IMG/VR virus record: IMGVR_UViG_3300035689_000007
Span: 1-64,000 of that record
Length of the DNA stretch: 64,000 bases
Direction: 5' to 3' (one strand)
From: a virus
In this document: positions 47,101-63,833 of the stretch, piece after piece
Layout of the letters: each line of letters opens with the position of its first letter
How positions within the stretch are numbered: position 1 is the stretch's first letter
Notes under the pieces: generated by a model
What the model was told of the DNA's origin: nothing
What the model saw: only the letters and a program-made list of their open reading frames with translations
The model's database searches: none
Made by a program: the position numbers and the translations under genes

Positions 47101-50100
47101 ATTGATAATGAAGATGTTAACTGGCCGATGTTATCAGTTCGAATATCAGATCTATCGGCATATTTATTTTTTCCTTCTAAGAATAGCGGACTCATTGATA
47201 GTCCTAATTGTTCGCAAATATACTTTGCCACATTTGCAGATCTAACATTATAAGCAGATATTGTAGATGTCATAGAGCTAGAATCTAAATTATATGTATA
47301 TGTTGTATTATTACTTATTTCATCTCCTAATGATGGCTCTTGACCATAAGTAATTATCAATGTTTTATTTCCCATGTCTAAGAATCGTTTAATATTCTGT
47401 ATATCTTCACTTGATGGCATATTGTCAGTATTAGCAATCCAAGCTGCTGTATAACCTTTAGAAATATCATATAGATCTTGTGTTAAAACATTTAAGTCGC
47501 CCATATCAATACCAACATTAGTCAATTGTGCCTGTATATCAGATTTATTATATCCATCAGTATATGAAGTTCTATTTGTAAATCCGCCAACTTGTGCAAC
47601 TTTTGCATTACCATCAGCATCAGTTGCTAATAAGTTAAAGTATAGATTAATATTTCTATCGCCCGCAGAGGATAATAAAATATTTCTACTTTCATACATA
47701 GTAGCAGCAATTAAAACTATTTTTGAAGTTGTACTATATTGTTCTGAAGCAATCATGCAAACATTGGGTTTGATATTAATCAATTTAGTTGCAGATTGAT
47801 TAGAGATCGTAGATCTAGCTTGTAGTACAGCATCGTTTCCATTATATTCACTTGGATCAAAAAACAAACTATTACTTACAGTATTATTAATATTGTAGTT
47901 TAATTCTGTATAATTACTGTCATCGTTTGACCAAATAAATGCAACGCCACTATATACAGCATTTCCAAATGTTGTTCTTACAGATGTAGAAGAATCATAA
48001 CCAACTAATTTGGATCTTAATTCTTCAGTGGGTGCAGAGCCGGGAACAATTATTGTTTTAGGTATTGCTTCATATGCTGACAAGATCGGTACTGGCTCAC
48101 TCTTTGTGTTGAAATTGGGATTTTTACCTCTTTCTTCTCCTTCGCAGCCCCAATCAACAATATTGTGTGTGCCATATTGAAAACCAAAATTTCTTTCATA
48201 ACTTATCCATGCTGGACCTCTGGGAGTCATTATCTCACATTGATCTATATATTTGGATCTTAAATCTCCCTCATGAACAATGGGCATTTCGCACTTATCA
48301 TGAAGTTCTCTATATGTTCTTTTTCTTTCAAAGTCAAAACTGAATGGATCAGAAGAACCACTTGGTGGTTTATCGCATATATATAAATCTGATATGTTTG
48401 TATCATATAATCTAATGTCTCCAACACCAGAACCTCTTAATGGAACTGGATAAGCTATGGCGGGAGTAGATTTAGCTGGTACAAAAGAGTTTTGAACATT
48501 GTAAAATGTATTTGTGTTTTGCATTAATGCTTCATATTGATTTCTAGCAGCATAAATGCGCATATTGACATCTAGTTCTTCTAATATATAGTTAATAATG
48601 TTGTTTGAGTTAAAGTAAGCGCCATTGGCTTCCCACTTGGGATCATTTCCAACCAAGACCAAGTGCCTATCGCCTAAAGATAACCAATCTCTAATATTGT
48701 CAATTATCTCATCGCTAGCAGCATTAATGGCTGGAGTAATTATAAAGGCGAGTCCAGCATCTTCTGGTATTTTTAAACCTTCAGCAAAACTTGTTCTAGA
48801 AAATGTATAACCCATACTATTGTATAGATTATTCATAGTAAAACTAAATAATCCAGAATCCTGCGGTGGACTTAATAGTTCGTGTAGATTTCCAAACTTG
48901 TAATACTCTACAACCTTTTTATTGTGTGGATAATAATTTCTACTTTCTAACAGCCTTATAGCTCCAGCATTGGTATAATTTTGCCACTGCCAAGGCTCTC
49001 CACCAAATGCAGTTTCTTGTCCAGATTTTATGTCATATCTAAACCACGTTTGTGTGTAGTCTCTTTCGCCCAAACTGTCTGTTGGAGAACCGATAGCAAT
49101 TAAAGATCCGTCTGAATTTATATCAACACTGTATCCTAATCTTGGTGTTGGTATATAATTCGCCCAAAGGTCTGACCAAGCATCAAAACCAATAGGAACA
49201 CCCATTTCATAAATTAAGTTGTACCTTTTAATTTGTAGGTTTTCTAAAAACTTGAAGTAAGCAAAGCGTAAACCTTCTGAAAACTTATTATATGTTTCTA
49301 AATTAAGATTTGCTATAGATTCTGTTATTGGTAATTTTTCTAAATATTCACTATATAGATCATAACTTTCACCAAATGTAGCATTATTAATTTCTTCATA
49401 GTATCTAGGTTGTAAGAAAGATGTGATAAAATATAAGCTGTTTAATAGCTGATTATTGAAGTTTTCGTTATATTCAAATACCTGCACTGAATGTGGAGAA
49501 TATGGAGATCCTATAGCAATAACTTTGCCATCATCACTTATTGCAACATCGTGTCCAAATCGATCAGAAGTATCATTTGTATAAGAAACTGGAGATTTGA
49601 TTTCTTGAACAACTTTAAACTGTCCATTATTTTCTCTTTCAAAAATATAAACAGATCCACCACTTGGTGGTGGGTAATTAAATTCACCAGCATTTTCATT
49701 GAAGCTACCAAGATTATTTGCTATTAATTTTTGTACATTGTTTTCTTGTAGTGTTTCAATATCAGTTAAATCTAATAAGCAGTTAATAGATTGTGCTATC
49801 CAATTTTCATCAACGTCAACCGTTACGTTAACAAATCCTTCTGCCGGATCTCCATCAAAATCCACCAATCCATTATTCTTAGAATAGTCTTTATAGTAAT
49901 CTATGAACTTATCTAGCGCCCCCTTTCTAAAAGGAATATTGTATCCTAAAGATTTAGAACCAAGTGATCTAGAATCATCTATATAGATTCCTAATAGCGG
50001 CGGTATGCCACTATGTATAGCGCTAGATGTTAGTGGAAATACTTCATGAAAAATATCTTTTAGTTCTTGAAGTATGACATCTTCTCGCTCTTGATATTCT

Positions 50101-53100
50101 GGAGTATTTACATTATAACTGAAATGTCTATGAGTAAGATACTTACTTACAAATGGCGGTTTTGGCTCTAAGAAATCTTTAGAAGTTTCACCAATACCAA
50201 TATTTGAACCAAGCATTGGTTCGCAAAGTATTACTTTAATATCAAACTTAACTGATGGGTCACAGAAATATCTATATACTAAATCTCTGTCTGATAGTTG
50301 ATCTAAAATTTGTCTCCAATTAGCATTATCTGGATCACTAACTAATTCGTTATTAAATACAAATAATCCTATAGTTACTGGAGTAGTTTGTATGGGAGCA
50401 AAAGTTCTACTCCACTCAGCGCCGGGTCCACCGGCAATTAAAATATCTGTATTGTTTCTACGGGCAGAATCTAATGAGTATCCTAATTGCCTTCCTTCTT
50501 GACCAACTATCCAATTAGTTCCTATACCCGTGTACGGCAACAAGTTACCATATCTATCTCTAAAAGAGATATTCCTCTTATAAAAATAATCTCTTCTCCA
50601 ACCAGTTGGTAAAACAATTTCTTGTTCTAACACAAAGTTAGATTTATCTAATTGATTGCTCCAATCATAACCACTTGGCTCTGGATTTTTTCTATAGACA
50701 TAAATTTTTCCTGCATTATTAATTTCGTAATTTGTTTCATCGAAAATATTTTCATATGGACAACCAATCATAACCCTATCATCAAGAACTGTAACACTTT
50801 TACCAAATTTATTTCCAGAAGAGTTCACACTTGGTGTTAATTGTATTCCACTATATGCAACATCTTCATTTGTTCCATATTCCCATTCTGTCATTTCTCT
50901 TGGAACTTGTAGTATTTTATCTGTTCCTGTTTTGCCAGTAATAGTAATTGTGTATGGCGCTTGTGGTATTAAATTACTGAATTTTCTAATTCCATAAAAA
51001 TGACCGCTATATGGAATATTAGTACCAAAGGCACCAACATCTGGATTTGTGTAAACAGTTATTGGTCTAACGACTCCACCGTTAACACATTCTGGATCAT
51101 ACCACAGTGTGTCATGTGTTATAAGTTGATCTTCTTGACACTTAATAGTGCTGATTGTATCACAATTACCATAGCATATGGTTTGTACTCCTCTAATTTC
51201 ATCAATCGCAGGAACTGACGCAAATTGATTATCTAATAATGAAATTTCTTTACCAAAATTTGTGCCATCCCACTTAAATGATTCTAGTTCATTATCTCTT
51301 TTGGAAATTGGTTTTACGTGATATAGATAGAGAGGAAATTGAGAATTAATGTTTTCTTCTTTTGGTCTACTGTTGATATATAAAGCAATATTTGCACTTG
51401 TTGGTTCCCAAGTTCTGTTTGGACCAAGTACATATAAACCAATAGATTCTTCTGTTGAAATATCAAAAGCAGAAAGCGGAAAACCAGCCAACAACATAAA
51501 ATTAAGTTGATCAACCGCTGGCTGATTTACATCATCATATGAAAAGAGATTTAATGAGTTGCTTATAGTATTTTCTATTAAGCCGTTAACATAACAAATA
51601 ATAGAATCTTCTTCATTGTCATATCCACCTTCTACAAAAAGGCTCATGCCTAGTGGATTATTATTTCCAAATAAACTTCCAAAATTTGAATTCGATGTTG
51701 ATGCATTGCCAACTTGAATGGTATATAATGGCATTGATACATTACTGTTAAATACTCCAGAACTAATTAATGACATTATACCAGATTGTTCAATATATGT
51801 TACGCCGCTGGTGTAGATATTAATTTGGTTATTGAAAGCGCTAACATATCCCACTTCATATAATGGTAATGGAGCTTCTTGATAAGCTTTACCAGATTCA
51901 TAAATTGGTAAATTGTTATTTATTTCATCAGATTGGTTAATTCCATTTAGTTCTATATCTACTGAGTGTAATTTAATTTGTGATTTGTTATATGTGCCAG
52001 ATGGATAGATAACATCGTATTGCACAAACATTTGATTTATGTCTTTAACAAAATAATTTTCTTCAAATTCTTTGTATGTAATAGTTTTATCGAAAAATGC
52101 CCAAGGTTCAGATTCATTATCCTTTAAATCTCCCAACTTAAACTTACTTTCTATCTTATTCCAGCAATCTTTTGGATTGAGATAATGAGTAGATCTGCTA
52201 ATCAAGCCAAAATTTTTGGTTGGAAATAATACACTTTCTTTAGATGGAGTATATAAACTAACTATAAGTTTAGCACCAGTTTTGCCATTGGGCCAATTAA
52301 TAGTAGAATCACATTCATGTTGTACAACGCTGTTAACAATTAAAGAATCTTCAGCAACTATATAACTTCTTGGTAAGTTTTTAACCAATCTTGGAGGTAA
52401 AGAATAAAGCCTGTCTTCATTACCAGAAAGACTAAATCTTAACATGTCATTTTCTACTTGAGAATGATATGAAATACCAGATAAATGTATTGAGTTTGGT
52501 AATGTTAGATTGGTTCTGTCTTGATAAGTCTTTCCATCATTATAAAAATTATGATATAGATAGTCTTTTCCATTTCTAAATTTCATAATGTCATACGCAA
52601 CACCAAAACTACAATATTTAAAAGCTCCTAATTTCCAATCTTCTGTTTTTTCATCAATAAATTGCCATAGTTTATTTCTATCATTTATGTGTGAGTCATT
52701 TACATTGCAAAAATGTGCTAAGTGGGTGTTGAAAAATAATTCAATATTGTCTTGCTGTTTAGAAGAATCTGGATTTGCATTATAGACTAGATTACCACCA
52801 CCAGTATCATTATGAGTTGATATACCAATTTCAGAAATAAAAGCATTGATGCCTATTCCAGATCCAGAAGAATATCCAAATAACAAATCACTATTACCAC
52901 TACTTAATACAAACTCATTTGATTCATCACATAGTATGTTTGTGCCACTGGCAATTGCGGCAATTTCACTATTAGTAAATAGTCTTAATTTACGAGATTG
53001 ATTATCATTATAAGTCAATGCAATAGAAAGTGGATATTGATAATTTTCATATGATATAGAATCTTGAAGTTCAATCAAGTTACCATTAGAATCTTTGGCA

Positions 53101-56100
53101 TATGCTGAAAGATATCCATCTTTATATCCTAAAGCATATTCTAGTTCTTCTGCTTCGTCCCATTTAGAAAACAATACTCCAGAATTCCACAAGTTATAAT
53201 CTACACCGCTCATGTTATAATCTGGAGAAAATCTTAAAAATACAGCAAAACCACTAGATGTTGGAACATTACCAAAATTCAAATAACCATTAACACCAGA
53301 AATGCGAACAGCGGAGTCAAACGAATCAAGTATTTTTCCATATAATTCGTGACTATTATCGGCCCAATCTAAACTGGTGTAATCTCTTATAGCGGTGGGA
53401 AATAATGATTCATTATTAAATCTTAAACCAAGATTTCTAACTAAACTAGAAGATAGATTTGCAGTAAACAAACCGCTTACAGTACTGGGAGCATCTTCCA
53501 AACTAGATAAAACATAATTATTGTGCGTATTGTTGAAATCATAATACCCAATAGTAAATGGTTGATCAAGTTGTGGATTACTAAAAGCAAAATCAAATGG
53601 AACAGGATCAAATGGGCCACCAAAAACATTACCGCTGCAACCGCGCCATCTTCTAGCATAATTTGTTTTTAGCGTCGTTTCAGAAGTTGAATATGCGTGT
53701 GGAATATTTTCTATTAGAGATAAAGGTGAATTTAAAATGTTGTATGGTGCGTCTACAGATTTTCTGGATGATGGATAAAGTCTATTTTGTCTTCTGGCTA
53801 TTTCCCTACTAAGAAAACCGGCGGTTGATAGTGGAAGAGCGCCACCGGGTTTATACTTGACAATGAGATTTGCGCTAGCAATCGAAGCGCCACTAGGAAT
53901 TGGATATATATCTATATATAAAGATTCAAAATAACTACTCATAGAGTAGTCTTTAGACATGCCCAATTCTACTTTGTCTTTGTATATCTTTAGTGGTACA
54001 GTATACTTAGTAAATGAAGTGCTATTGACTAGTGGAGATTGAGTAATTAAATAGTGATCTCCAGAATCGTTGGGAACAATATTTTTTGAGAAATATGATC
54101 GTTTATCAGATAGAGATTCTGAAGAAATTCCAAGATCATAAACGGGACCAAAACCAGATGTAGTTGGAATAGTTCCGCTACCAGTAATTGAATTTTGTAG
54201 AAATCCACCAACATCAGAAGTAATGAATAAAACTTTATCATCACTATAACCAACAACGTCTATTGGAAAGTCATTTGTTCCGATAGCTTTTTTAGCAACA
54301 ATTTCTAAGCTAATATCTTCAATAATAAAGAAAGAATCATCTCCATAAACTAATTCTATATCAGCTTTTTTAAATGGATTTGTATACGTGTTACCAAACG
54401 AAAAGTCACCACCCCTTGGAAGTTTTACAGAAAACGGTCTTTGATGCTCATATAGTAACTGAAGTTTGCCAGATGGTGCCGTATGAGAAACTATATTTCC
54501 ATCAACATATAGATTAGTAAGTCTATCTATAAGTTCTAATTGGTGTTTGTCGTCGTTAACAGTATTATTGTATGTAAGATTGTCAAGATCTGGAGAGGTT
54601 TCCCAAACATTATTTAGTCCCGTTGGATAAATATTATTATCGAATGTGTTTAGTAAAACCTTGGTTGGATATATAACTCTTTCTATCCAAGTTCCAGTAC
54701 TTTGAACCCCTAAGAAGAATGGTAGTTCAGAATCTCTCAATATACCTTCCGCTCTACCTAGATTAGCAATTTCTATTGCTGAAATTCTAATAGCGTTAGT
54801 AGGTCTAATGTGATAATCTTGAGATTGTGCAGATAATGGAGCGCCATCCACAGCAAGATAATCGTTTTCAGAAGTATTAACAAATTTGTCATTCAAATTG
54901 GCTTCAAAGGCAAAACCTTTGGCAAATTCTTCTGTAAATGGTTGATAAAAACAGTTGCCTGTAATGTCGAAACTTAACGTATATCCACTTGGTTCTCCGA
55001 GAATGGGATATTTTAATTTCCAAGTATTTAATGTTGCATAATTTATCTCTGGCTCGCTAACATATGTAATGTAATTAAATTGGTCTTTGTCTTCAAAGTT
55101 TGCCTCGCCACGAACTTGAAAATCTTTATATTTAACAATCAAATTGCCAGAAGGATCTTCAAACTTAATATTTGTTATGTCGTATAATGTTGGCTGATCT
55201 GTTTCATAATTAAATGTTGGCGCGGCGGCGCGGAAAAAAAAGAAACTTTCTAGTGGAGTAATTTCTGGAGTATTAACAAAGCACTTATACTTGAATGTGC
55301 CTTTAGTATAAATAGACGATGGAGTAATATATGTTGAGTCATCGTCTGAAATAATATTTCCTACGCGAGAATCTTTAGTAATATTACCTAGACACACGCC
55401 CTCATTAATACTTTCAAATAGATTAACCGGCTTAATTTTCTCATTAACAAGAAAAATATTATTATGTTCGACTGTAATATCTTGAATAGGAAATAATTTT
55501 TGTGTTGGCGTGAAATTATCAAATTGGTTTATTTTGTTAAAATGCCCATGTAATTTTTCAAAATATTTACTTTTAACAATACCAGAGCCAGATATTCTAG
55601 TCCTAAAATTATTAATAGGGCGATTAAGACTAGCTTTTAATTCAAATCTTGTAGATAGTCTAGATAGTTTAAGATTCCAAATACACTGTGGTCCTCTAGA
55701 GATAACTAATACAGAATTATTAGAGTCTAGTGGATCATAAACACTACTTGGAATAGCATCCCATCCACCACTAATAATGCTTGGACTATTTATATTGATT
55801 AATTGAGCTGGTAGATTTGTGGGAGATCTACGTATTAATAATTCGGATGATAATACTTTGATATTTCCAGAAACTTTAATAATTTTTGGAGCAAAGCTTG
55901 GAAAATTAGATACAGTATTAGCAAATAGAGAGCCAAATGTGGGTGTTGAATTAGTTCCAGACCCTCTCTTAAATCCAGAATATATTACACTTACATTAAG
56001 TTTACTTAGATTGCCAGTACCTCTTGATCTAACAAAAGGTTGTACTGTTTTTTTCAAAAACGCTTTGACTTTAGCGTCTGGCGCTATTTTTATTTTTAGT

Positions 56101-56126
56101 CTCGACGATCCATCACAAAGAAACAT
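44136..56126 (-). CDS. Giant (3996 aa) tail/adhesin protein with LamG-like domain and seven FG-GAP repeats
   Basis: LamG-like segment (YLNFG...GVLFSKW...IALTYND...LRLF); FG-GAP repeats FGKSV, LGYSL, FGHDV, LGYSV, FGYSV, FGYDI, FGNAI. Confidence 0.8.
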   Translation of the reverse strand: MFLCDGSSRLKIKIAPDAKVKAFLKKTVQPFVRSRGTGNLSKLNVSVIYSGFKRGSGTNSTPTFGSLFANTVSNFPSFAPKIIKVSGNIKVLSSELLIRRSPTNLPAQLININSPSIISGGWDAIPSSVYDPLDSNNSVLVISRGPQCIWNLKLSRLSTRFELKASLNRPINNFRTRISGSGIVKSKYFEKLHGHFNKINQFDNFTPTQKLFPIQDITVEHNNIFLVNEKIKPVNLFESINEGVCLGNITKDSRVGNIISDDDSTYITPSSIYTKGTFKYKCFVNTPEITPLESFFFFRAAAPTFNYETDQPTLYDITNIKFEDPSGNLIVKYKDFQVRGEANFEDKDQFNYITYVSEPEINYATLNTWKLKYPILGEPSGYTLSFDITGNCFYQPFTEEFAKGFAFEANLNDKFVNTSENDYLAVDGAPLSAQSQDYHIRPTNAIRISAIEIANLGRAEGILRDSELPFFLGVQSTGTWIERVIYPTKVLLNTFDNNIYPTGLNNVWETSPDLDNLTYNNTVNDDKHQLELIDRLTNLYVDGNIVSHTAPSGKLQLLYEHQRPFSVKLPRGGDFSFGNTYTNPFKKADIELVYGDDSFFIIEDISLEIVAKKAIGTNDFPIDVVGYSDDKVLFITSDVGGFLQNSITGSGTIPTTSGFGPVYDLGISSESLSDKRSYFSKNIVPNDSGDHYLITQSPLVNSTSFTKYTVPLKIYKDKVELGMSKDYSMSSYFESLYIDIYPIPSGASIASANLIVKYKPGGALPLSTAGFLSREIARRQNRLYPSSRKSVDAPYNILNSPLSLIENIPHAYSTSETTLKTNYARRWRGCSGNVFGGPFDPVPFDFAFSNPQLDQPFTIGYYDFNNTHNNYVLSSLEDAPSTVSGLFTANLSSSLVRNLGLRFNNESLFPTAIRDYTSLDWADNSHELYGKILDSFDSAVRISGVNGYLNFGNVPTSSGFAVFLRFSPDYNMSGVDYNLWNSGVLFSKWDEAEELEYALGYKDGYLSAYAKDSNGNLIELQDSISYENYQYPLSIALTYNDNQSRKLRLFTNSEIAAIASGTNILCDESNEFVLSSGNSDLLFGYSSGSGIGINAFISEIGISTHNDTGGGNLVYNANPDSSKQQDNIELFFNTHLAHFCNVNDSHINDRNKLWQFIDEKTEDWKLGAFKYCSFGVAYDIMKFRNGKDYLYHNFYNDGKTYQDRTNLTLPNSIHLSGISYHSQVENDMLRFSLSGNEDRLYSLPPRLVKNLPRSYIVAEDSLIVNSVVQHECDSTINWPNGKTGAKLIVSLYTPSKESVLFPTKNFGLISRSTHYLNPKDCWNKIESKFKLGDLKDNESEPWAFFDKTITYKEFEENYFVKDINQMFVQYDVIYPSGTYNKSQIKLHSVDIELNGINQSDEINNNLPIYESGKAYQEAPLPLYEVGYVSAFNNQINIYTSGVTYIEQSGIMSLISSGVFNSNVSMPLYTIQVGNASTSNSNFGSLFGNNNPLGMSLFVEGGYDNEEDSIICYVNGLIENTISNSLNLFSYDDVNQPAVDQLNFMLLAGFPLSAFDISTEESIGLYVLGPNRTWEPTSANIALYINSRPKEENINSQFPLYLYHVKPISKRDNELESFKWDGTNFGKEISLLDNQFASVPAIDEIRGVQTICYGNCDTISTIKCQEDQLITHDTLWYDPECVNGGVVRPITVYTNPDVGAFGTNIPYSGHFYGIRKFSNLIPQAPYTITITGKTGTDKILQVPREMTEWEYGTNEDVAYSGIQLTPSVNSSGNKFGKSVTVLDDRVMIGCPYENIFDETNYEINNAGKIYVYRKNPEPSGYDWSNQLDKSNFVLEQEIVLPTGWRRDYFYKRNISFRDRYGNLLPYTGIGTNWIVGQEGRQLGYSLDSARRNNTDILIAGGPGAEWSRTFAPIQTTPVTIGLFVFNNELVSDPDNANWRQILDQLSDRDLVYRYFCDPSVKFDIKVILCEPMLGSNIGIGETSKDFLEPKPPFVSKYLTHRHFSYNVNTPEYQEREDVILQELKDIFHEVFPLTSSAIHSGIPPLLGIYIDDSRSLGSKSLGYNIPFRKGALDKFIDYYKDYSKNNGLVDFDGDPAEGFVNVTVDVDENWIAQSINCLLDLTDIETLQENNVQKLIANNLGSFNENAGEFNYPPPSGGSVYIFERENNGQFKVVQEIKSPVSYTNDTSDRFGHDVAISDDGKVIAIGSPYSPHSVQVFEYNENFNNQLLNSLYFITSFLQPRYYEEINNATFGESYDLYSEYLEKLPITESIANLNLETYNKFSEGLRFAYFKFLENLQIKRYNLIYEMGVPIGFDAWSDLWANYIPTPRLGYSVDINSDGSLIAIGSPTDSLGERDYTQTWFRYDIKSGQETAFGGEPWQWQNYTNAGAIRLLESRNYYPHNKKVVEYYKFGNLHELLSPPQDSGLFSFTMNNLYNSMGYTFSRTSFAEGLKIPEDAGLAFIITPAINAASDEIIDNIRDWLSLGDRHLVLVGNDPKWEANGAYFNSNNIINYILEELDVNMRIYAARNQYEALMQNTNTFYNVQNSFVPAKSTPAIAYPVPLRGSGVGDIRLYDTNISDLYICDKPPSGSSDPFSFDFERKRTYRELHDKCEMPIVHEGDLRSKYIDQCEIMTPRGPAWISYERNFGFQYGTHNIVDWGCEGEERGKNPNFNTKSEPVPILSAYEAIPKTIIVPGSAPTEELRSKLVGYDSSTSVRTTFGNAVYSGVAFIWSNDDSNYTELNYNINNTVSNSLFFDPSEYNGNDAVLQARSTISNQSATKLINIKPNVCMIASEQYSTTSKIVLIAATMYESRNILLSSAGDRNINLYFNLLATDADGNAKVAQVGGFTNRTSYTDGYNKSDIQAQLTNVGIDMGDLNVLTQDLYDISKGYTAAWIANTDNMPSSEDIQNIKRFLDMGNKTLIITYGQEPSLGDEISNNTTYTYNLDSSSMTSTISAYNVRSANVAKYICEQLGLSMSPLFLEGKNKYADRSDIRTDNIGQLTSSLSIAANTYLYDGLDENSSFASSNSYVGYGDGAVTVPYSDRPPYPVPNGFTHEFVPINNRNAINLAFFDAPVTDTEQFSIGVPKFNTGITKVSFTVPEKLEEHDDYNLFKLRFNILKESSLEISPINLVVGNCLASEFVNTSVLNQPIGPVGRNILLVDTDENNNVKQTYVSAGYTKELYDSLDLYVQIPSGQETLDMYFTHSASYPLQQNPKQLRTVRLLSVSGVRIPSNTIISTARWPIYETEVVTIPGTPDTSYTQLFNREISTDSSKYCISNNRICSNDPPEGYGTPGVDIADGPVVMAQTVYHQGGYFNGYNKSRITVISDPSLIQGRTILSEGGNTINPNLAWFLASLYPNTNFNTTRSGRQYETAFKIISPERSSPSRLVNAYPENSGLNYRFGQFTSNSLPATKYSDLEGKIEIAGKKPPQPTDPMLPLFNSDIGHFRIELSPPPPYTEEEKAALRQAWYIDNFNIVEQHYGSTSKIQDTYNGTLYRDAGIYSRIPPILRAIGKDHLDLDVFYSGYPGDLFGYSVKIHKDKVYVGAPFSPYNTEEITPWSTIIASGMQHGKEVGFNGGAGAVYLIEKVGNVGSGLGSVNLSKQKTTGIPWTVTRKFRPEEISVGFSGLTTSNSSTVIGNNNYSNDKLKNLAFVSDMFGYDIALNGDILAISAPCHRFENYSEDTPAPFIRKEFNEQFDIQQRIIHDLAIPSEREQYGASGTVVFNHGAVFTYENKINNWGSKTQEWTPIHKLVAQGPYARIQNSGENTFFGNAIAIDRARRVDGDYILAVGAMNHPFSTSGNVFDNIGSTYAFDGMLRSLRPAFSHPDTFIAGRVYGEYQKPSDYTTFTFKNDNNFDQKVLFNGIVLSNINGEIFIEASGQDKVPRGYVVHRPYIEHIRGSFLHGTPVYEDINLFVDGAPPFVSGSLSLVNYGPESNNVYNMMDLYTFNLLQSSGNMPLIASGLASPSGVMELYSSGIAKTDTILQLRTRGSL
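44294..44304 (-). promoter_or_regulatory. Second copy of TGTGTATAATA, candidate internal late promoter
   Basis: Identical 11-mer about 160 nt upstream of the 44134 start, inside the 3' end of the giant gene. Confidence 0.4.
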
Positions 56127-56135
56127 ATTTATTCC

Positions 56136-59100
56136 TTATCGACCAACTGTTGATGAAGACTTGCTTAAAGTACCACCTTGTCCAACTTTATATTTACTGA
56201 TTTCTTTAGTTACAGCCTCAATGATTTGATTATTAGCATAATCTTTGATTGCCTTAAATATTCCACCATCCATTAGGTTGACAGTAACAGTAACAGGCGC
56301 TAATGTAATATTTAAACCTAATGAACTTAATCTATCTATATTAGCTTGAAATGCACCCAAAAACGTTGTCAAAGATTGAGAAAAATTGCTTAATGCGGCT
56401 AAATCTATTGGTGGTTGTGCGTTACCATTTGCGGGCGTAGTATTAGTCGCTATAGTAGATAATACACTTTGTAGACCACCAATAGCACTAATAATACCAT
56501 CTGAATTAAATGTTGGCATCATTTGTTGTGGACTAGCTCCAGAACTACTAGTATTTTGTGGTACTTGTGGAACATTGGTTACTGGTGGCGCAGGAGTTGT
56601 AGCGACGTTTGCTGGTGGAGTAGTACCAGTTTGAGATGGTGGAGTATAATTAGTATTTGCAGCTAATCTTGCTTGGAGCGCTGGGCTTCCAGAAACATTT
56701 GCAAGCAGAGCAGAAAATGGAGAACTTGGTGCAGGTTTAGACGCTTGTGCTTCTGGTTGAGCTTGAGCTTTTGGTTCTGGTGGTGGTGCAGCAGGCTGAT
56801 CGGCTTTTGGCGCTTCAGCACCTTCTGCGGCTTTACCAGCCTCGCCAGTTCTTTCTTTAACGTTTTGTACGGCTGCTTCCATTTGTTTCTTTGCTGCTTC
56901 TTCCAAAGCCCTAGCAGCATCTAATTGTAGCTTTGCTGCTAATTCTTGATTTTGTGCTGCTGGAACTAATTGTGCTGCTAAACCTCTAGCCTCTTCTTGA
57001 ATTGCTTTTTCTTCAGCGGTTGTTCCTGCGGCAACTTCTGCCATACCCTTGAGATCACCAGACATTCCAGTATTAGCCAAACCTGCTGCATAAGCGTTTT
57101 CTGTAACCTGATCTATATTTTGACCAAACACTTCTCTTACGCCAGCTTCTTTTTGTGCTTGTAATTGTTTTGTAGCCTCTCCAAAAGCTGTAAAACCAAA
57201 TTGACTAGTTAATCTTGGATCGCCAACCGCCGCTGCTGCGGCTGCTCCAGCGCCAGCTTGTTTGTTTAAAAACTCTTCTATATTTCCACTAAGTAAAGAA
57301 TCGATAGCATCTTTTTCAGCTTTGTTTTTAGCCTTAACAAGTTTTAGTTCTTGACGTTTAACATCAATTAATGCTCTAATGGTTTCTTGTTCTTTAGCTG
57401 CGAGGTCTGCTAGTCTTTGTTCTTGAGCTTCAAATTCTGGATTAATTTGTTGTTGAGCGCCCCTGTCGCCACTTGCTGCCGACTTTCTAACAGCACCAAG
57501 TTCTTCCATTTTTGCTCTAGTTTCTGCACTTCTTTGAGCAAATTCAGCAGCACTGCCTGTCTGTAGACCACTAACACCAGCTTGTGCTGAATCAAGATTT
57601 GCTTTATCTAATATTGCTTGTTTTTGCATTTCTGGAGTGACTGCCGCCCCTCCAAATTCTTCCATAATTTTAGCAGCTTCCATCTGAACATCAATAGTTT
57701 TCTTTTGAGCTTCAATGTATTTATTTTCAAGATCTATTCTTTGTTTTTGTATTTTGAATAATTGTTCTTCAGATTCTTTAACCTTTTGTAAGGCTGGAAG
57801 AACTTGAGATAATGTCTGTTCTCCAAGTTCTCCAAGAGCGTTCTGTAATGGAGCAAAGTTACCATCAACAATTTGTTGCATATCGTCTTCACTGAGTTTT
57901 CCACCCTCGATAGCTTTTTTAATTCTCTCTTTAACTTCTGGCGCAAAATCTTTTAGTTGATTAACAACTGCCTCTCCTAAAGCTTCACGTTTTTCATCTG
58001 CCGTGCCAGTACCACGGGCAACACCTCTCTCAAAATCTGCTTTTAATTTTGCTTTTGCTTCTTCACTCGCTTGAGCGAAGAATTTTTGAGCTTGATTAAC
58101 TGCGCCTAGATTTTCTTCAAATTTCTTTATTTGTGCTGGATCGCCACCAAGTTTACTTAGTTGTCCAGAAGCTTCTTGAACAGCGCTGTTCCAATCAGTA
58201 TCAGAAATACCTTGGGCAGCATTTGTAATACCAGCTTCTAGTGTAGATATTGTTTGTCCAAGTCTTGATGTGCTACCATCTTGTGCTTCAATAAGATTAT
58301 TAATTCCAACAGAGGCGGCGGAAGCTGCGGCATTTACATTATTAAATCCTAAGTTCATAGCATTAAAAGCTTCTCTTGTTCTTTGAGCTTCTTTAGCTAA
58401 ATTATTAAATTCCTTCTCCATTCTTTGTAATTCGCTGTCTCTACCTTTCGCCTTGGCTTCATCTTGTTCTCTTTCTAATGTTGCAACGACATTAGTTCCT
58501 TGTTCTGCGTCTCTTTGCTTTAAGAGATTAAGGACATCTTGAAAAGATCCGCCGGAATTAGCTGTTTGTCTTTGGATTAAACCTATTCCGGGTTTTGCGC
58601 TAGCAAGAACAGTTTTATCTAATTCTTTATTTGCTTTTTGTAATTCTTCTTGTTTTTGTACTTTTTGTTGTTTAACTTCTGCATTAGAATCGACAAATCC
58701 AAAACTTAGCCAAGCTAATGCTTCCCTCATATAACTAAATGTATCTTCTGCTAATTCTTTTTGTAGTGCGCTTAAAGCTTCTTCATTTGCCATTCTTGCT
58801 TCAACAGCCGCTAATTGTGCAGAAGAAGCAGCATTCAAAACATCAATAGCAGAAGCGGTGCCATTTCTAAATTCTTCCATTTTTTGTGAAGTAGCATCCT
58901 GTGCATCTTGGAATTTTTCAGTTGCTTTATTTGTTAAAGCCATAGCCTTGGCGTGTTTAATTATTATGTCGCCATCTACTTCTAAGCTAGCCGTCATTGC
59001 GCCAACACCAGCACCAATGATTGCTCCTGCCGCAGCACCAATAGTAGTTCCAATGACAGGAACAATAGACCCAACAGCAAGACCAATAGCAGCACCAGAA

Positions 59101-62100
59101 GCAGCACCAAGACCAACATTACCTAGTTCATCTCCAGTTGGTCTAACCATTCTTTCTTTGGCACCAACCTCTTCTTCGGCTTTTAACACAGCCGTATTAA
59201 CATCTCCCTCTTTTATAGCTTTTTCTTTTTGCGCTTTAGCAGCTTCAGCAATAGAAGATTGCCATAATGCAAATGCTCCTATAGCGCCAAGAACTGCGGC
59301 AGCTAATAATACAAAAGGATTAGCCAATACTGCTGCTAAATTAGCAGATGTTTCAGCCACTTCTGAAGCAGTATTTGCTGTATTAGCTCCAGTTTCTGCG
59401 CCCTCTGTTATAGTATTTGCGGTATTGGCTGCTGCATTAACTTTAGCAGCAGAACTCATTAATCCTACATTAACTAGCAATCCTTTAAAACCATCAACAA
59501 TGCCTCCAAGAGGTATTTGTTGTAATAAAAAGGCAACAGTAGAAAATTGTAAACCTAATTCTGAAATATTTTTCTTAAAATAATCCATTGATGTAGAATT
59601 TTCATCAATTGTTGGAGCAAGCATTGCTAATGCAGAAGTGACTGCACTAAATGCGGCAAAAGCGGCCATGCCATCTCCACCGCCTCTTCTTGGAGTTCCA
59701 CCACCACCACCACCACCACCACCGCCAGCGCCGCCCCTATTTCCAGCATCAGATGCTCTATTAGATGGAAGTGGAGAACTTGCCCCTTGAACAGTATTGC
59801 GTAAATCTGATCTGGCTGAACGCTCTGCCCTTGTTATCGTGGCTCTACGTTCTAATATTTCTTGCCTAGATCTTTCTTCTCTAAAACCGCCGCCACCAAC
59901 GTCTCTTGATTCAACTCTAGCTCTGTATTCTGGATCTGTAGCTAATCTTCTACCTCGTAAAATTGCTTCTGTTTTTTCGCCACCCTTAGTAAATCCAGCT
60001 TCTTGTAATTGTTGTTTTTTAGCTTTAGCTGCGGCAGTCTTATCAGACATTTCTTTGCCGGTGCGAACATCAATGCGAGACGCAGATGCTCCACTTCTAA
60101 TAGTTTTTCGAGCTTGATCAAAAGCTGCTTGAGCTTGAGCTTTAATTGCTTCTTTTAATCTTTCTCTTTCTTTTTGAATAGCGTCTGTAGCAGTAATACC
60201 TCTTCTAGCTAATTGTTCTGTACTAGTATTATAAGCTAATTCTTTATTTGTAGCAGATAAAATTCTCTGTTTTACATTAGCAATTTCTTGATCGATGTTT
60301 CTATCAACTTCACCACTAGATGAAACTGGAGATTTTGTAACATCTTTACTAGTTTTTGCGGATTCTTGTTTTACTTTAGTATCTTCTAACAAAGCTCTTC
60401 CATAAGCTTCTAATCTTTCTTGAACAATTACATGTTGTGCAGTATTACCATCTAAAGATGAAATATATTGACTAATTTCATCAATAATACCAAATTGAGT
60501 TAATGATCCAAGTTTATTAGCAGCGGCGTTGTCTTTAAGAGCCGTAATAAGTGGACCTCCACTAAAACCTATAACACCTTTAATTTGTTGACTTAAAGAA
60601 GCGTAGCCAGAACTTAATTCTTGATTAAATCCAGCAAAATTAGCTATACGTGAAGATAAATTTTTGGTAACTTTATCAAGAACTTTGAAAGTTGTGGATA
60701 CACCAGTGAATATACTGGGATCAAAATCCACAAACCCCTCACTACCAGATCCTAAAAATTGTGGCGGTTTACTTTTACCACCATTGGCAAATCTTTGAAC
60801 ACCAACTATGCCACCCTTTGCATATTTACCAACTTTATTCATACGGTTAAGAGAACCATAACCAATATTTTGAGCAGATTGTTTATTAATTACGAACTCA
60901 CCGGGAGTCAACAATGCCGGAACAGTATCTGTGCCGACATTTCCACCAGTAGCAAATCGTTTTACTGATCGATCAGCCCTTGGACCCTTTGATCTCATTG
61001 AATCAAGTGCTGGTTGTTTGCTTGCGCCCTGAGTAAATATCATGTTTGCGGTGGGTATACCAAACAATCCACCAAGGTATTCAGCAGCGCCCTTAACTCT
61101 TTTAGATTTGCTGATAATACTAATTTTGCGAGGATCTATTTGACCTGACTTAATTATAGCTTGTAGTTCTTTACCAAATTGAGTTAATGGAGAAGATTTC
61201 AAATCTTGTAATCTTTTTGCTTCATCTCTAAAATATGTTTGTAGAACAGATTGTTTTGCTTCTGGAGTTTTTGCTTTGGCGTATGCTAAATCACCAACTG
61301 TTCGTTTTAGAGTACGATCAATATCTACAGCGCCGCCGCCAGACTTTATTAACGCTTGAATAGCAGAACTTGGGTTTGGCAATATAGAACCAGATGCTTG
61401 TAATATATCATCAACCATTGGGGCTGTTGCCAAACCACCGGCAGCAAATTTTCGAATTATTCCTCCTAAGAATTTTTTTTGTTTTCTAGCAGATACTCTT
61501 TGTTCAGCGGTTGATGCCTTTTTTCTATTTTCTATATCTGAAGTAAATCCACCAACATTTTGTGATATTAGTTCATTGGCTAGTGTAGATCTAAATCCTT
61601 CTACAAGTTTATTTGTACCTTTTTTTGCTAAACTTCCAAGAGAATCTTCAGAAAAAGTTCTTTTGGCGTCTGATATTAAAGATGAATCTAAATTAAATAT
61701 TTGACCAGCAGACCCAAGACCAGAAGGAAAATCGAAAGTGTCATTTGGATTAATTTTATTTTCAGTAAATGGAGAATTAGACAAACCATTAACAAAAGCT
61801 TCAAAAATTCCACCTTCTATTTGTTCAATATTAGCTCTATTTAAAGCAGCACTAAACTTACCAGAATCAAATGGTGGATTATTTTTAAATGTCTGAGAAG
61901 CAAAAGTATTTGAAAAATTTGCTAACGATGTATTGATACCATTTTTATATTGTTCAGAAACTGTTTTAGATAATGAGCCAGATGTTATACCTATGGACAC
62001 ACTGTTAAATTTTCCAATTAATTCTTGAGTTAAAGTTTTAGTGGCAGATTTTCCAAGACCAGAAGTAACGGAGTTTAGCATAGAATTAATGCCAGATTTA

Positions 62101-63833
62101 TCTATTCCTGCTACAGTTTTTCTCATTATCCCTTCTGGTTGTAAAAACACACCACCAATATCTAATTCTTTGTCTTGAGGATCTTTATCTCCAGCGGCAC
62201 GAATAACAGCTTGAATTTGTTGATCATTTATCTTGAATGTAGAACTGACACCATCTGATTCTAATTTTTCCTGTAAATTTTTTCTCGTTCCCTGTTTTCC
62301 ACCCTTTTGGAATCTATTCTCATTCATAGCAGCAAGATTACTAGCACCTAATCTATTGACGCTACTCTTTCTAATAACAAATTCGCCGGGTTGTAACATT
62401 GCTGGAACAGTATCTCTATTGCCACTGCCGGGAACCATACCACCCCTAGCAAAATAATGAACTTGACCTCCGCGAGACATTCTTCTACCACCACCACCGC
62501 CACCTAATCCGGCTGAAATACCACCTAAAAATCCACCAATACCTTGTGCCGCTTTAATGCTAGCAAATGTTAATAATAATGGTATAACGGGTTTTAACGA
62601 ATCTGCAAGTTTAATTAGTGCGCTCGCTAATTTCAAAGTAGTATCAGCAAGAACTTGGAAAGTGCCAGTTTGTGTAATACTTCTAATTAGTGCTAGAAAT
62701 TCTTCTTTAACTTTGATAATTCTTATAGCAAGAGATTGTTGTGCAGTAGCAACGTCATTAGCCAAAGAACCCGCGCCCTCTTGTGCGACATTTAAAGCTT
62801 CTTGAGCAACAGCAAACTGTTGTAAGAGTGGAATAACTTTACCAATCTGTCTAAAGCCACCAAGCTCTTCTGCAACGCGAATAAATGTAATATCGCCCTG
62901 TTCTAATCCACCAAGGGCTTCGCTCAATCTTTTAATGGCTTCAAACGGTCCAACGAATTTACCCTGTAAATCTACAAGCTCTACACCAAACTGTTTTAAG
63001 AATTCAATTGTTTTGGGGCGTTGGATACGTGTAAAAATTGTACGTAAACCAGTACCAATACTTTCTGCACTTTCTCGCGTAGTCGCTCTTACGCTGGTGA
63101 ACAATGCCAAGAGTTCATTAAGACTACCGCCAGAAGATTTAAACACACCGCCCGTTCTACGAACAACGTCGATCAAGTCAGATGATTCAACAGCAAACGC
63201 CGCTGAAACAGCGTTAACTGAACCAAGTTGTTGTTCTAAGGCAGCGGCACCAGCTCTAAACTGATTAAAAATAGCCACAGCGCCTTCTGTGGTTTCTGTA
63301 ATATCATCGAACGTTGGCGACAATTGAGTTTGTGCTAAAGTTCTAAGTGCTATTTCTGTATCTTTGGCAGTTAAACCAGCTTGTGCTAAAATCGTTGAAA
63401 CATTTATCAAACTAGAAGAACTAACACCTAAATTAGTAGCTAAAGATGTAATTGTCTCACTAAGAGAAGAAAGTTGTGTGATAGTCTTGCCAGTGACCTG
63501 ACTTATACGAACTAACTCTCTTTCAAATTTTATAGCTTCATCTACGGCGCTGGAAATTGTATTAGTAAAAAGACTAACAGCCCTAGTTGCTACGGCTAGG
63601 GCTGAAAATCTTCTTACTGATGTTACGAATGTTCTGCCTAGTCTTTCTGACGCTACAGTAGCTCTATCAGTAGACTGAGTTAATTGATCTATTTCAGATC
63701 TAGCTCTTGCAGCATTATTTACCTGTATATTAACTCTAACATTATCAAGTTGACTTTGGATTTGTCTAACAACTTGATTAACATTTGAGGGCGCTTGTAT
63801 ATTTAACTGTGCTGTGAGTACAAATCTTGACAT
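56136..63833 (-). CDS. Tail tape measure protein (TP901-like core) with internal accessory segments
   Basis: N-terminal core (FERELVRISQVTG, LAQAGL, ESIGTGLRTIFTR), Ala/Gln/Glu-rich helices, TM/glycine-zipper segments, two GG...DTVPA.L.PGEFV motifs. Confidence 0.92.
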   Translation of the reverse strand: MSRFVLTAQLNIQAPSNVNQVVRQIQSQLDNVRVNIQVNNAARARSEIDQLTQSTDRATVASERLGRTFVTSVRRFSALAVATRAVSLFTNTISSAVDEAIKFERELVRISQVTGKTITQLSSLSETITSLATNLGVSSSSLINVSTILAQAGLTAKDTEIALRTLAQTQLSPTFDDITETTEGAVAIFNQFRAGAAALEQQLGSVNAVSAAFAVESSDLIDVVRRTGGVFKSSGGSLNELLALFTSVRATTRESAESIGTGLRTIFTRIQRPKTIEFLKQFGVELVDLQGKFVGPFEAIKRLSEALGGLEQGDITFIRVAEELGGFRQIGKVIPLLQQFAVAQEALNVAQEGAGSLANDVATAQQSLAIRIIKVKEEFLALIRSITQTGTFQVLADTTLKLASALIKLADSLKPVIPLLLTFASIKAAQGIGGFLGGISAGLGGGGGGRRMSRGGQVHYFARGGMVPGSGNRDTVPAMLQPGEFVIRKSSVNRLGASNLAAMNENRFQKGGKQGTRKNLQEKLESDGVSSTFKINDQQIQAVIRAAGDKDPQDKELDIGGVFLQPEGIMRKTVAGIDKSGINSMLNSVTSGLGKSATKTLTQELIGKFNSVSIGITSGSLSKTVSEQYKNGINTSLANFSNTFASQTFKNNPPFDSGKFSAALNRANIEQIEGGIFEAFVNGLSNSPFTENKINPNDTFDFPSGLGSAGQIFNLDSSLISDAKRTFSEDSLGSLAKKGTNKLVEGFRSTLANELISQNVGGFTSDIENRKKASTAEQRVSARKQKKFLGGIIRKFAAGGLATAPMVDDILQASGSILPNPSSAIQALIKSGGGAVDIDRTLKRTVGDLAYAKAKTPEAKQSVLQTYFRDEAKRLQDLKSSPLTQFGKELQAIIKSGQIDPRKISIISKSKRVKGAAEYLGGLFGIPTANMIFTQGASKQPALDSMRSKGPRADRSVKRFATGGNVGTDTVPALLTPGEFVINKQSAQNIGYGSLNRMNKVGKYAKGGIVGVQRFANGGKSKPPQFLGSGSEGFVDFDPSIFTGVSTTFKVLDKVTKNLSSRIANFAGFNQELSSGYASLSQQIKGVIGFSGGPLITALKDNAAANKLGSLTQFGIIDEISQYISSLDGNTAQHVIVQERLEAYGRALLEDTKVKQESAKTSKDVTKSPVSSSGEVDRNIDQEIANVKQRILSATNKELAYNTSTEQLARRGITATDAIQKERERLKEAIKAQAQAAFDQARKTIRSGASASRIDVRTGKEMSDKTAAAKAKKQQLQEAGFTKGGEKTEAILRGRRLATDPEYRARVESRDVGGGGFREERSRQEILERRATITRAERSARSDLRNTVQGASSPLPSNRASDAGNRGGAGGGGGGGGGGTPRRGGGDGMAAFAAFSAVTSALAMLAPTIDENSTSMDYFKKNISELGLQFSTVAFLLQQIPLGGIVDGFKGLLVNVGLMSSAAKVNAAANTANTITEGAETGANTANTASEVAETSANLAAVLANPFVLLAAAVLGAIGAFALWQSSIAEAAKAQKEKAIKEGDVNTAVLKAEEEVGAKERMVRPTGDELGNVGLGAASGAAIGLAVGSIVPVIGTTIGAAAGAIIGAGVGAMTASLEVDGDIIIKHAKAMALTNKATEKFQDAQDATSQKMEEFRNGTASAIDVLNAASSAQLAAVEARMANEEALSALQKELAEDTFSYMREALAWLSFGFVDSNAEVKQQKVQKQEELQKANKELDKTVLASAKPGIGLIQRQTANSGGSFQDVLNLLKQRDAEQGTNVVATLEREQDEAKAKGRDSELQRMEKEFNNLAKEAQRTREAFNAMNLGFNNVNAAASAASVGINNLIEAQDGSTSRLGQTISTLEAGITNAAQGISDTDWNSAVQEASGQLSKLGGDPAQIKKFEENLGAVNQAQKFFAQASEEAKAKLKADFERGVARGTGTADEKREALGEAVVNQLKDFAPEVKERIKKAIEGGKLSEDDMQQIVDGNFAPLQNALGELGEQTLSQVLPALQKVKESEEQLFKIQKQRIDLENKYIEAQKKTIDVQMEAAKIMEEFGGAAVTPEMQKQAILDKANLDSAQAGVSGLQTGSAAEFAQRSAETRAKMEELGAVRKSAASGDRGAQQQINPEFEAQEQRLADLAAKEQETIRALIDVKRQELKLVKAKNKAEKDAIDSLLSGNIEEFLNKQAGAGAAAAAAVGDPRLTSQFGFTAFGEATKQLQAQKEAGVREVFGQNIDQVTENAYAAGLANTGMSGDLKGMAEVAAGTTAEEKAIQEEARGLAAQLVPAAQNQELAAKLQLDAARALEEAAKKQMEAAVQNVKERTGEAGKAAEGAEAPKADQPAAPPPEPKAQAQPEAQASKPAPSSPFSALLANVSGSPALQARLAANTNYTPPSQTGTTPPANVATTPAPPVTNVPQVPQNTSSSGASPQQMMPTFNSDGIISAIGGLQSVLSTIATNTTPANGNAQPPIDLAALSNFSQSLTTFLGAFQANIDRLSSLGLNITLAPVTVTVNLMDGGIFKAIKDYANNQIIEAVTKEISKYKVGQGGTLSKSSSTVGR
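59698..59736 (-). repeat. (GGT)n trinucleotide run encoding a poly-Gly linker in the TMP
   Basis: Plus strand ccaccaccaccaccaccaccaccaccgccagcgccgcc, encoding GGAGGGGGGGGGGT. Confidence 0.8.
60770..62480 (-). repeat. Eight basic-aromatic-x-x-GG peptide motifs, two extended as DTVPAxLxPGEFV, within the TMP
   Basis: RRMSRGG, HYFARGG (62439-62453), NRFQKGG (62298-62315), KKFLGG, RKFAAGG (61434-61448), KRFATGG (60942-60956), GKYAKGG, QRFANGG. Confidence 0.8.

Follow-up and report, generated by a model that had tools for sequence, protein, structure and literature searches.

The stretch analysed here, referred to as the window, comprises 64,000 nucleotides (nt; positions 1 to 64,000) of the IMG/VR virus record IMGVR_UViG_3300035689_000007. 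The record comes from an uncultured phage with a genome of roughly 150 kb; it is 78.6 kb long and is estimated to be ~50% complete. On the minus strand of the window lies the gene of a giant tail tape measure protein (TMP) of 2565 amino acids (aa). We propose, with a probability of roughly 0.6, that an array of independently folding domains has been inserted into this giant TP901-type TMP and is shuffled by recombination, and that the domains would be effectors carried by the virion.

Architecture of the tape measure protein and its joints

The gene, P0001, is a single uninterrupted open reading frame (ORF), and its parts are the following (window coordinates, with the evidence in brackets).

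56136..63833, minus strand: the giant TMP gene P0001, 2565 aa (one uninterrupted ORF; PF10145, phrog_28 and phrog_4211 match the N-terminal part)
62490..63833, minus strand: TP901-type TMP core, aa 1-448 (PF10145 and phrog_28)
62298..62489, minus strand: bracket A, aa 449-512, with RRMSRGG, HYFARGG, DTVPAMLQPGEFV and NRFQKGG (motif scan; 55-87% identical in relatives)
61485..62297, minus strand: segment 1, aa 513-783 (271 aa), a hypervariable cassette (folded alpha/beta model; N668, E678 and D701 near-invariant; D722-x-K724)
61434..61484, minus strand: middle double joint, aa 784-800, KKFLGGIIRKFAAGG (motif scan)
60963..61433, minus strand: segment 2, aa 801-957 (157 aa), HAD/receiver-like (alignment, model, fold searches)
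60768..60962, minus strand: bracket B, aa 958-1022, with KRFATGG, DTVPALLTPGEFV, GKYAKGG and QRFANGG (motif scan; profile match to lambda gpH)
58983..59672, minus strand: membrane-like region past the array, aa 1388-1617, with three hydrophobic, Gly-zipper-like segments (hydropathy scan)

By sequence, P0001 is classified as a TP901-family phage tail tape measure protein, its core match being above the curated cut-off. PF10145 scored 86.5 bits on aa 126-312 in the Pfam scan (cut-off 33.2), and phrog_28, a tape measure family, matched aa 23-448 in the PHROG scan (E 7e-23). An earlier sequence-only reading of this DNA had placed a motif-rich stretch (60770-62480, corresponding to aa 452-1022 of the minus-strand ORF) directly behind the TMP core. 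This placement is borne out, because the PF10145 and phrog_28 matches end by aa 448. The same reading had counted eight basic-aromatic-x-x-GG motifs and two extended DTVPAxLxPGEFV units as outer brackets. We located all eight motifs, with their GG pairs at aa 455, 464, 511, 790, 799, 963, 1007 and 1018, and both extended units, DTVPAMLQPGEFV at aa 474-486 and DTVPALLTPGEFV at aa 969-981. An origin of the motifs by chance or low complexity was rejected: [FY]xxGG occurs six times within aa 449-1022 (574 aa), against a mean of 0.47 and a maximum of 4 in 2000 shuffles. In the remaining ~2000 aa of the TMP it occurs once.

The motifs belong to a joint of ~13 aa, with the logo GG-x-[VI]-Q-[KR]-[FY]-A-x-G-G-x-[VA], that is kept across relatives (890 distinct instances). 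Conservation peaks in and just upstream of FAxGG, and position +6 (V/A) is conserved too. Every domain of the array is flanked by a conserved joint. An element GG-h-I-x-[KR]-F-A-x-GG, as found in the middle joint, precedes segment 2 at most of the loci displayed.

The two brackets that frame the whole array are copies of a unit of ~60 aa, FAxGG...GEFV...YAxGG. All elements of this unit, namely FAxGG, a spacer of ~10-20 aa, GEFV, a K/R-rich stretch, IGxGNLxR(L/M)N and YAxGG, are found in both brackets, and a Gly-rich hydrophobic stretch (aa 433-448) lies immediately N-terminal to bracket A. In a block-wise BLAST against 120 relatives, the brackets were 47-87% identical. Bracket B is modelled with low confidence in the AlphaFold2 monomer (predicted local distance difference test score, pLDDT, <60 throughout and mostly <50). 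A profile search of the PDB matched the bracket unit to aa 732-785 of lambda gpH (8iyk_H), and the alignment of bracket A with gpH, at aa ~701-785, takes in the Gly-rich lead-in. As the E value of the gpH match is only 0.02, we regard the pattern as shared and homology as a possibility. That such a unit usually occurs once near the C-terminus of a TMP, as the sequence-only reading had it, holds for lambda gpH (aa 732-785 of 853) but not here: the relatives have 0-6 units per protein, most often three, and frequently one near the C-terminus. In many relatives an extra DTVPAxLxPGEFV unit is found ~150-250 aa before the C-terminus, at the same position as in lambda; this C-terminal unit is absent in the window TMP (56136-57500, minus strand) and in its near-identical relative P0005.

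Relatives and exchange of domains between phages

A word-indexed search retrieved ~2000 relatives, all of them giant TMPs (1400-4500 aa; contigs as long as 235 kb) in which the core, the units and segment 2 are retained. No member of the family is cultured. When aa 513-960 were searched by phmmer against 1.8 billion representatives, all 96 matches were TMPs of the family or fragments of them, and no outside family was found. No cultured relative was matched when 24 kb were compared by megablast with 50,697 phage records, and a single-protein scan of prokaryote genomes, made to find the host, gave no relative. In a tblastn search with the array, just the bracket unit, over ~45 aa, was matched, in proteins of Synechococcus, Achromobacter and Gordonia phages.

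Comparison among the relatives shows a mosaic. In the block-wise BLAST, segment 2 was matched nearly everywhere and segment 1 was usually unmatched. P0005 matches the window TMP with 100% identity as far as NENR (aa 507), and from KFAAGG (aa 795) onwards it does so again to the C-terminus, while between aa 507 and 795 the common islands are just EG-IFE, FDFPS and DAKRT. In the relative P0004 the core is ~50% identical, segment 1 99% and segment 2 90%, and the proteins are unrelated past bracket B. At the DNA level, the one P0004-type stretch compared (locus L049) has two mismatches over aa 500-811 (936 nt). Its mismatches are dense up to aa ~499 and rise again from aa 812, and the core is 41-77% identical in nucleotides. 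This 936-nt tract was exchanged recently, with one end in the conserved half of bracket A (left breakpoint at aa ~499-510) and the other in the conserved start of segment 2.

The same pattern is seen across the family. Among 315 protein pairs with core identity of at least 80%, 233 are less than 30% identical in the first slot, and 29 are at least 80% identical there. The segments between joints fall into about 80 clusters, 56 of which are singletons. At each of the 45 loci examined, a single giant ORF without interruption contains segment 2, and no split-gene form of the TMP was found among them.

These results speak to the proposal, made from the sequence, that the array is a modular cassette of swappable parts with fixed boundaries. 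The alignment of related TMPs that had been suggested as a check gave variable segments between fixed motifs, as seen in P0005, P0004, L049 and the 233 pairs, and the block-wise BLAST and the exchange between phages agree with swapping. The further idea that the motifs are recombination anchors stands in a modified form: anchoring is supported, but the anchors are the bracket unit of ~60 aa and the start of segment 2 rather than the short 5-aa motif alone.

Segments 1 and 2, further cassettes and gene neighbourhood

In an alignment of 28 sequences, some of them only 33-36% identical, segment 2 has 26 invariant columns, including D808, D809, D837-x-D839-x-T841, R844, T845, G847, D848, S910, N930 and K939. 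Conservation of segment 2 exceeds that of the TMP core, with 57-90% identity in relatives versus 45-72% for the core (block-wise BLAST, 120 relatives). Its AlphaFold2 model (m65784a0cf9f9), with a pLDDT of 81-93 in the core, has four strands in all. One strand ends in the DxD, behind which comes a helical insertion; S910 follows the next strand and K939 the third. The invariant D837-I-D839-R-T841, at predicted strand 51-54 of the model, conforms to HAD motif I (DxDx[TV]), and the invariant S910, behind strand 121-125 (ISIIS), corresponds to the Ser of motif II. The top Foldseek matches are all HAD phosphatases (AphA with probability 0.98 and E 0.015, PSPH and BT pyrophosphatase). Comparison by VIA gave Z scores of 6.1-7.0 against class B/C acid phosphatases and receiver domains: 6.8 for the class C acid phosphatase 3pct (root-mean-square deviation 3.2, 122 aligned residues), 6.2 for AphA and 6.9 for receiver domains. 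The score for T4 Pnkp phosphatase was 5.2. The PDB profile search with segment 2 returned gpH alone, via the bracket, and the ESM Atlas returned unnamed clusters alone, with scores of at most 0.85. The most likely function of segment 2 is that of a phospho-aspartate enzyme of the HAD/receiver type that depends on Mg, probably a phosphatase.

Segment 1 is also modelled as a folded alpha/beta domain (AlphaFold2 model mad8340c55a83, pLDDT 81, predicted template modelling score 0.72). N668, G674, F677, E678, D701 and G705 are conserved at 90% or more, and D722-x-K724 is found in most members. Of 144 full-length relatives, 109 have the pattern G-x-h-[FY]-E...h-D-h...[DE]-x-K, compared with 4 of 144 shuffled proteins, and the pattern spans cassette variants that cannot be linked by BLAST. 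The pattern suggests a catalytic or metal site that may be under selection while the remaining domain turns over. E678, D701 and D722-A-K724 follow the order of a helix-borne E, D and (D/E)xK in PD-(D/E)xK nucleases, and relatives alternate between DAK, EAK and ELK; D701 lies outside any long strand in the model. In the fold searches, neither a nuclease with the alpha-beta-beta-beta-alpha-beta core nor any other fold came above Z 4.4 or below E 0.6. A PD-(D/E)xK nuclease is a lead and not a finding. The PDB profile search with segment 1 gave noise alone (E 0.34), and no usable match was obtained in the ESM Atlas.

The sequence-only reading had called both segments unlike TMP helices and enzyme-like. 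The former agrees with the models, in which aa 513-783 and 801-957 are both folded alpha/beta domains. The latter holds in part: the phospho-aspartate residue set of segment 2, the E/D/DxK residues of segment 1 and the ADP-ribosyltransferase of relatives speak for it, but the fold matches are middling for segment 2 and lacking for segment 1.

The ADP-ribosyltransferase is found in relatives only, with none in the window TMP. PF03496 is placed exactly between two joints both in P0026 (aa 966-1177, behind segment 2; 26.6 bits) and in P0035 (aa 1067-1276, ahead of segment 2; 28.5 bits), in each case above the cut-off of 23.4 bits. F-V-S-T-S-K together with E-x-E, typical of R-S-E type ADP-ribosyltransferases, occurs in ~16 of 144 relatives. 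Most cassette families have no Pfam match; PF03496 was the one family found for a cassette, and Pfam scans of P0006, P0011 and P0013 gave nothing apart from PF10145.

A distant lineage (L041-L048) has domains of the same kinds with a different repeated joint. Its 3128-aa PF10145 TMP (L041:7265-16651) contains five exact copies of GFIPNF and two variants (NGFLPNFA and NGNIPNFA), has two FAxGG/GE[YF]V units that are C-terminal only, and includes a homologue of segment 2, at 35-38% identity, together with E...D...ExK-like modules. Since the joint changes with the lineage while the domains stay, the sequences suggest that the joint may work with a co-evolving partner such as a protease, a chaperone or the tube.

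Behind the array of the window TMP, a Gly run (GGAGGGGGGGGGGTPRRGGG) precedes the three hydrophobic Gly-zipper-like segments, the whole spanning aa 1367-1617 (window 58983-59735, minus strand), and relatives show PF13441/PF13488 Gly-zipper matches in the corresponding region. The TMP contains no Cys, three His and three Trp. The gene sits amid large ORFs on the same strand, of which one distant tail-fibre-like ORF is recognisable. Directly downstream is an ORF of 3996 aa (window 44136-56126, minus strand), followed by ORFs of 575, 284, 1426, 1210 and 247 aa; no PHROG family was found for the 3996-aa ORF or the five beyond it. The ten ORFs upstream (L051:367-14855, genome 63866-78354) are essentially without Pfam or PHROG family; the exception, of 1545 aa, is tail-fibre-like (phrog_9942, E 2e-24). 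Hardly any of the structural module in this phage group can be annotated. Among the proteins collected, the 168-aa P0174 joins a methyltransferase-like NPPW, a uracil-phosphoribosyltransferase-like GDAGDLAYG and the C-terminal half of a segment-2-like domain, and is probably a chimera of assembly or gene calling.

Weighing of explanations and comparison with known systems

In the explanation that we prefer, the array consists of domains that fold independently and are shuffled between giant TMPs. The conserved units and the conserved segment 2 supply DNA homology on both sides of the hypervariable first slot, so that divergent phages swap the domain in this slot. Since the domains are permanently fused to the TMP, they would be built into the tail and would leave with the TMP at infection, and as virion-borne effectors they could act before phage gene expression. 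Segment 1 would be one of a family of domains that evolve fast but retain an N/E/D/DxK polar cluster, suggestive of a metal-dependent hydrolase and possibly a nuclease, and some relatives add an R-S-E ADP-ribosyltransferase.

Several points weigh against this explanation. For segment 2, the order of HAD motifs III and IV is not found: K939 is invariant, but between it and the next joint there is no acidic motif. The sole invariant DD pair (808-809) lies upstream of motif I, where it could be part of a permuted HAD or a receiver-like layout. The fold scores are middling, and Z below 8 is rated by the tool itself as possibly a common arrangement. No HAD family was found for segment 2 in Pfam or NCBIfam, and hhalign of segment 2 against E. 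coli AphA was not significant, with a probability below 1%. Given the middling scores, the absence of motif IV and the lack of membership at the sequence level, segment 2 is therefore described as working like a phospho-aspartate enzyme and not filed as a member of the HAD family. Segment 1 has no structural relative: the best Foldseek matches had E 1.8 against the PDB and 0.63 against BFVD, and the best Z across VIA was 4.4. The term 'nuclease-like' therefore refers to its residue pattern alone. Moreover, folded domains of 150-270 aa, as trimers or hexamers, should not fit into the lumen of a tail tube of ~4 nm. They would need to be stored in an extended form or elsewhere.

If, in line with the processing idea of the sequence-only reading, the TMP were a true polyprotein, the joints would be cleavage sites, and a phage or host protease would cut after GG and free the effectors at tail maturation or after ejection. 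In its favour, one joint consensus is repeated at every domain boundary, and the L041 lineage combines domains of the same kinds with a different repeated joint, GFIPNF. Such lineage-specific junction peptides are the expected look of cleavage sites that co-evolve with a protease. There are also precedents, in that lambda gpH is cut just upstream of what would be the homologous unit (PMC12617516) and TP901-1 Tal has, between its structural and catalytic domains, a Gly-rich motif at which it is processed (PMC11409707). Against it, the TMP contains neither Cys nor HExxH, and among the 16 neighbouring ORFs, in a record of ~50% of the genome, no relevant Pfam or PHROG family of peptidase or tail chaperone was found. 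In addition, the motif also occurs inside the bracket units, where cuts would shred the units. We consider a polyprotein doubtful, while leaving it some weight. A bolder proposal, which we hold to be unlikely, is a programmable effector injector. The domains would be stored unfolded in the lumen, be released at lineage-specific joints (FAxGG, GFIPNF) and reach the cytoplasm immediately before the DNA; the E/D/DxK module would be in an arms race with host immunity, and the phospho-aspartate enzyme would disable a common host function.

Alternatively, the segments could be modules of envelope penetration or structure, with a site of action in the wall or periplasm, like the peptidoglycan-hydrolase motifs of other TMPs, or with a role as plugs or parts of the channel. 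The joints and units would then be assembly elements that contact the tube, a chaperone or the hub, rather than mark cargo for release. The best structural matches of segment 2 are class B and C acid phosphatases of the periplasm and outer membrane, membrane-like segments lie behind the array, wall hydrolases embedded in TMPs are established (PMC1796659), and the region of lambda gpH to which the bracket unit would be homologous remains in the tip fragment gpHC (PMC12617516). We nevertheless judge such a role improbable. The ADP-ribosyltransferase cassette of relatives needs NAD+, and a cytoplasmic site of action is therefore indicated. No wall-degrading hydrolase families were detected by Pfam in the window TMP, P0006, P0011 and P0013, and hypervariability with retained polar residues, as in the first slot, is more suggestive of effectors evolving under conflict than of a structural role. 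That the segments are functionless, tolerated insertions, i.e. spacers that add length, with motifs as remnants of duplicated TMP ends, is hardly credible. Such insertions would be in line with the known acceptance by TMPs of insertions and deletions that scale tail length (PMC1796659) and with the missing Pfam match of most cassette families. They would not account for the conservation of segment 2 above that of the core, its invariant columns across lineages of low overall identity, the confident globular models of both segments, or a polar signature in segment 1 that outlasts near-complete sequence turnover.

If domains shuffled between TMPs are indeed delivered, they could act ahead of any phage gene expression. 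TMPs may then deliver more than cell-wall hydrolases, namely exchangeable domains that are predicted to be ADP-ribosyltransferase, phosphatase-like and hydrolase-like. The scale is considerable, with ~2000 proteins, all uncultured and with almost no annotated neighbours. The array also gives a handle on the old questions of where and how TMPs such as lambda gpH are cut, and how folded domains could be stored in a 4-nm tube, and the joints are natural engineering sites for swapping domains in a TMP.

TMPs are ejected ahead of the DNA and form a channel across the envelope (PMC12617516). Lambda gpH is cut in a Gly-rich region into gpH* and gpHC, by a protease and at a site that are unknown, and residues ~690-817 of gpH are unresolved in cryo-electron microscopy (PMC12617516). 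In lambda gpH (PDB 8IYK), a Gly-rich stretch followed by FATGG...GEFV...IGxGNL...YATGG (aa ~701-785) aligns with brackets A and B, albeit with the weak sequence match given above (E 0.02), and this single unit lies just past the maturation cleavage region. The two proteins differ in that gpH has one unit near its C-terminus, without inserted domains, whereas two units frame folded domains in the window TMP.

For segment 2, the closest folds are those of HAD class B/C acid phosphatases (AphA, 1z5g/2b82; 3pct, 2i33, 3sf0) and CheY-like receivers. The shared layout consists of a DxDxT that ends the central strand, a helical insertion, a Ser that ends the next strand, an invariant Lys and an acidic pair. 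Segment 2 differs in that it has only four strands, its acidic pair is N-terminal to motif I, and membership at the sequence level is lacking.

TMPs with embedded peptidoglycan-hydrolase motifs are established, e.g. in mycobacteriophage TM4 (PMC1796659). The TMP of TM4 and T5 pb2 resemble the present family in having catalytic modules within a TMP that are delivered by the tail at infection. The modules of the window family, in contrast, are not wall hydrolases but HAD/receiver-like, an unassigned E/D/DxK module and, in relatives, an ADP-ribosyltransferase; each protein contains several of them, with a repeated joint between them and demonstrable exchange between phages.

Polyvalent proteins (Iyer, Burroughs, Anand, de Souza and Aravind 2017) are described as packaged in heads or delivered by conjugation, often with a self-processing metallopeptidase (PMC5512222). 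They would share with the present TMPs many conflict-type domains, including ADP-ribosyltransferases, in one polypeptide that enters the host along with the DNA, a variable composition, and a proposed processing. Multi-domain variable composition is seen in the TMP family, while we infer delivery from TMP biology alone, and the functions of the domains are predicted. The carrier here differs in being the TMP itself, without a peptidase domain, and the text of PMC5512222 does not mention tape measures. A further parallel is provided by the Sle1/Tme effectors of contractile injection systems, in which a TMP-like coiled-coil carrier in the tube lumen bears a diverse, exchangeable domain (PMC13277306). 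These are the cargo of a bacterial nanomachine with one C-terminal domain, whereas in the present family a phage TMP bears an internal multi-domain array with conserved joints. What is new relative to known TMPs is such an internal multi-domain array in a phage TMP, the joints that delimit its domains and its recombination between phages.

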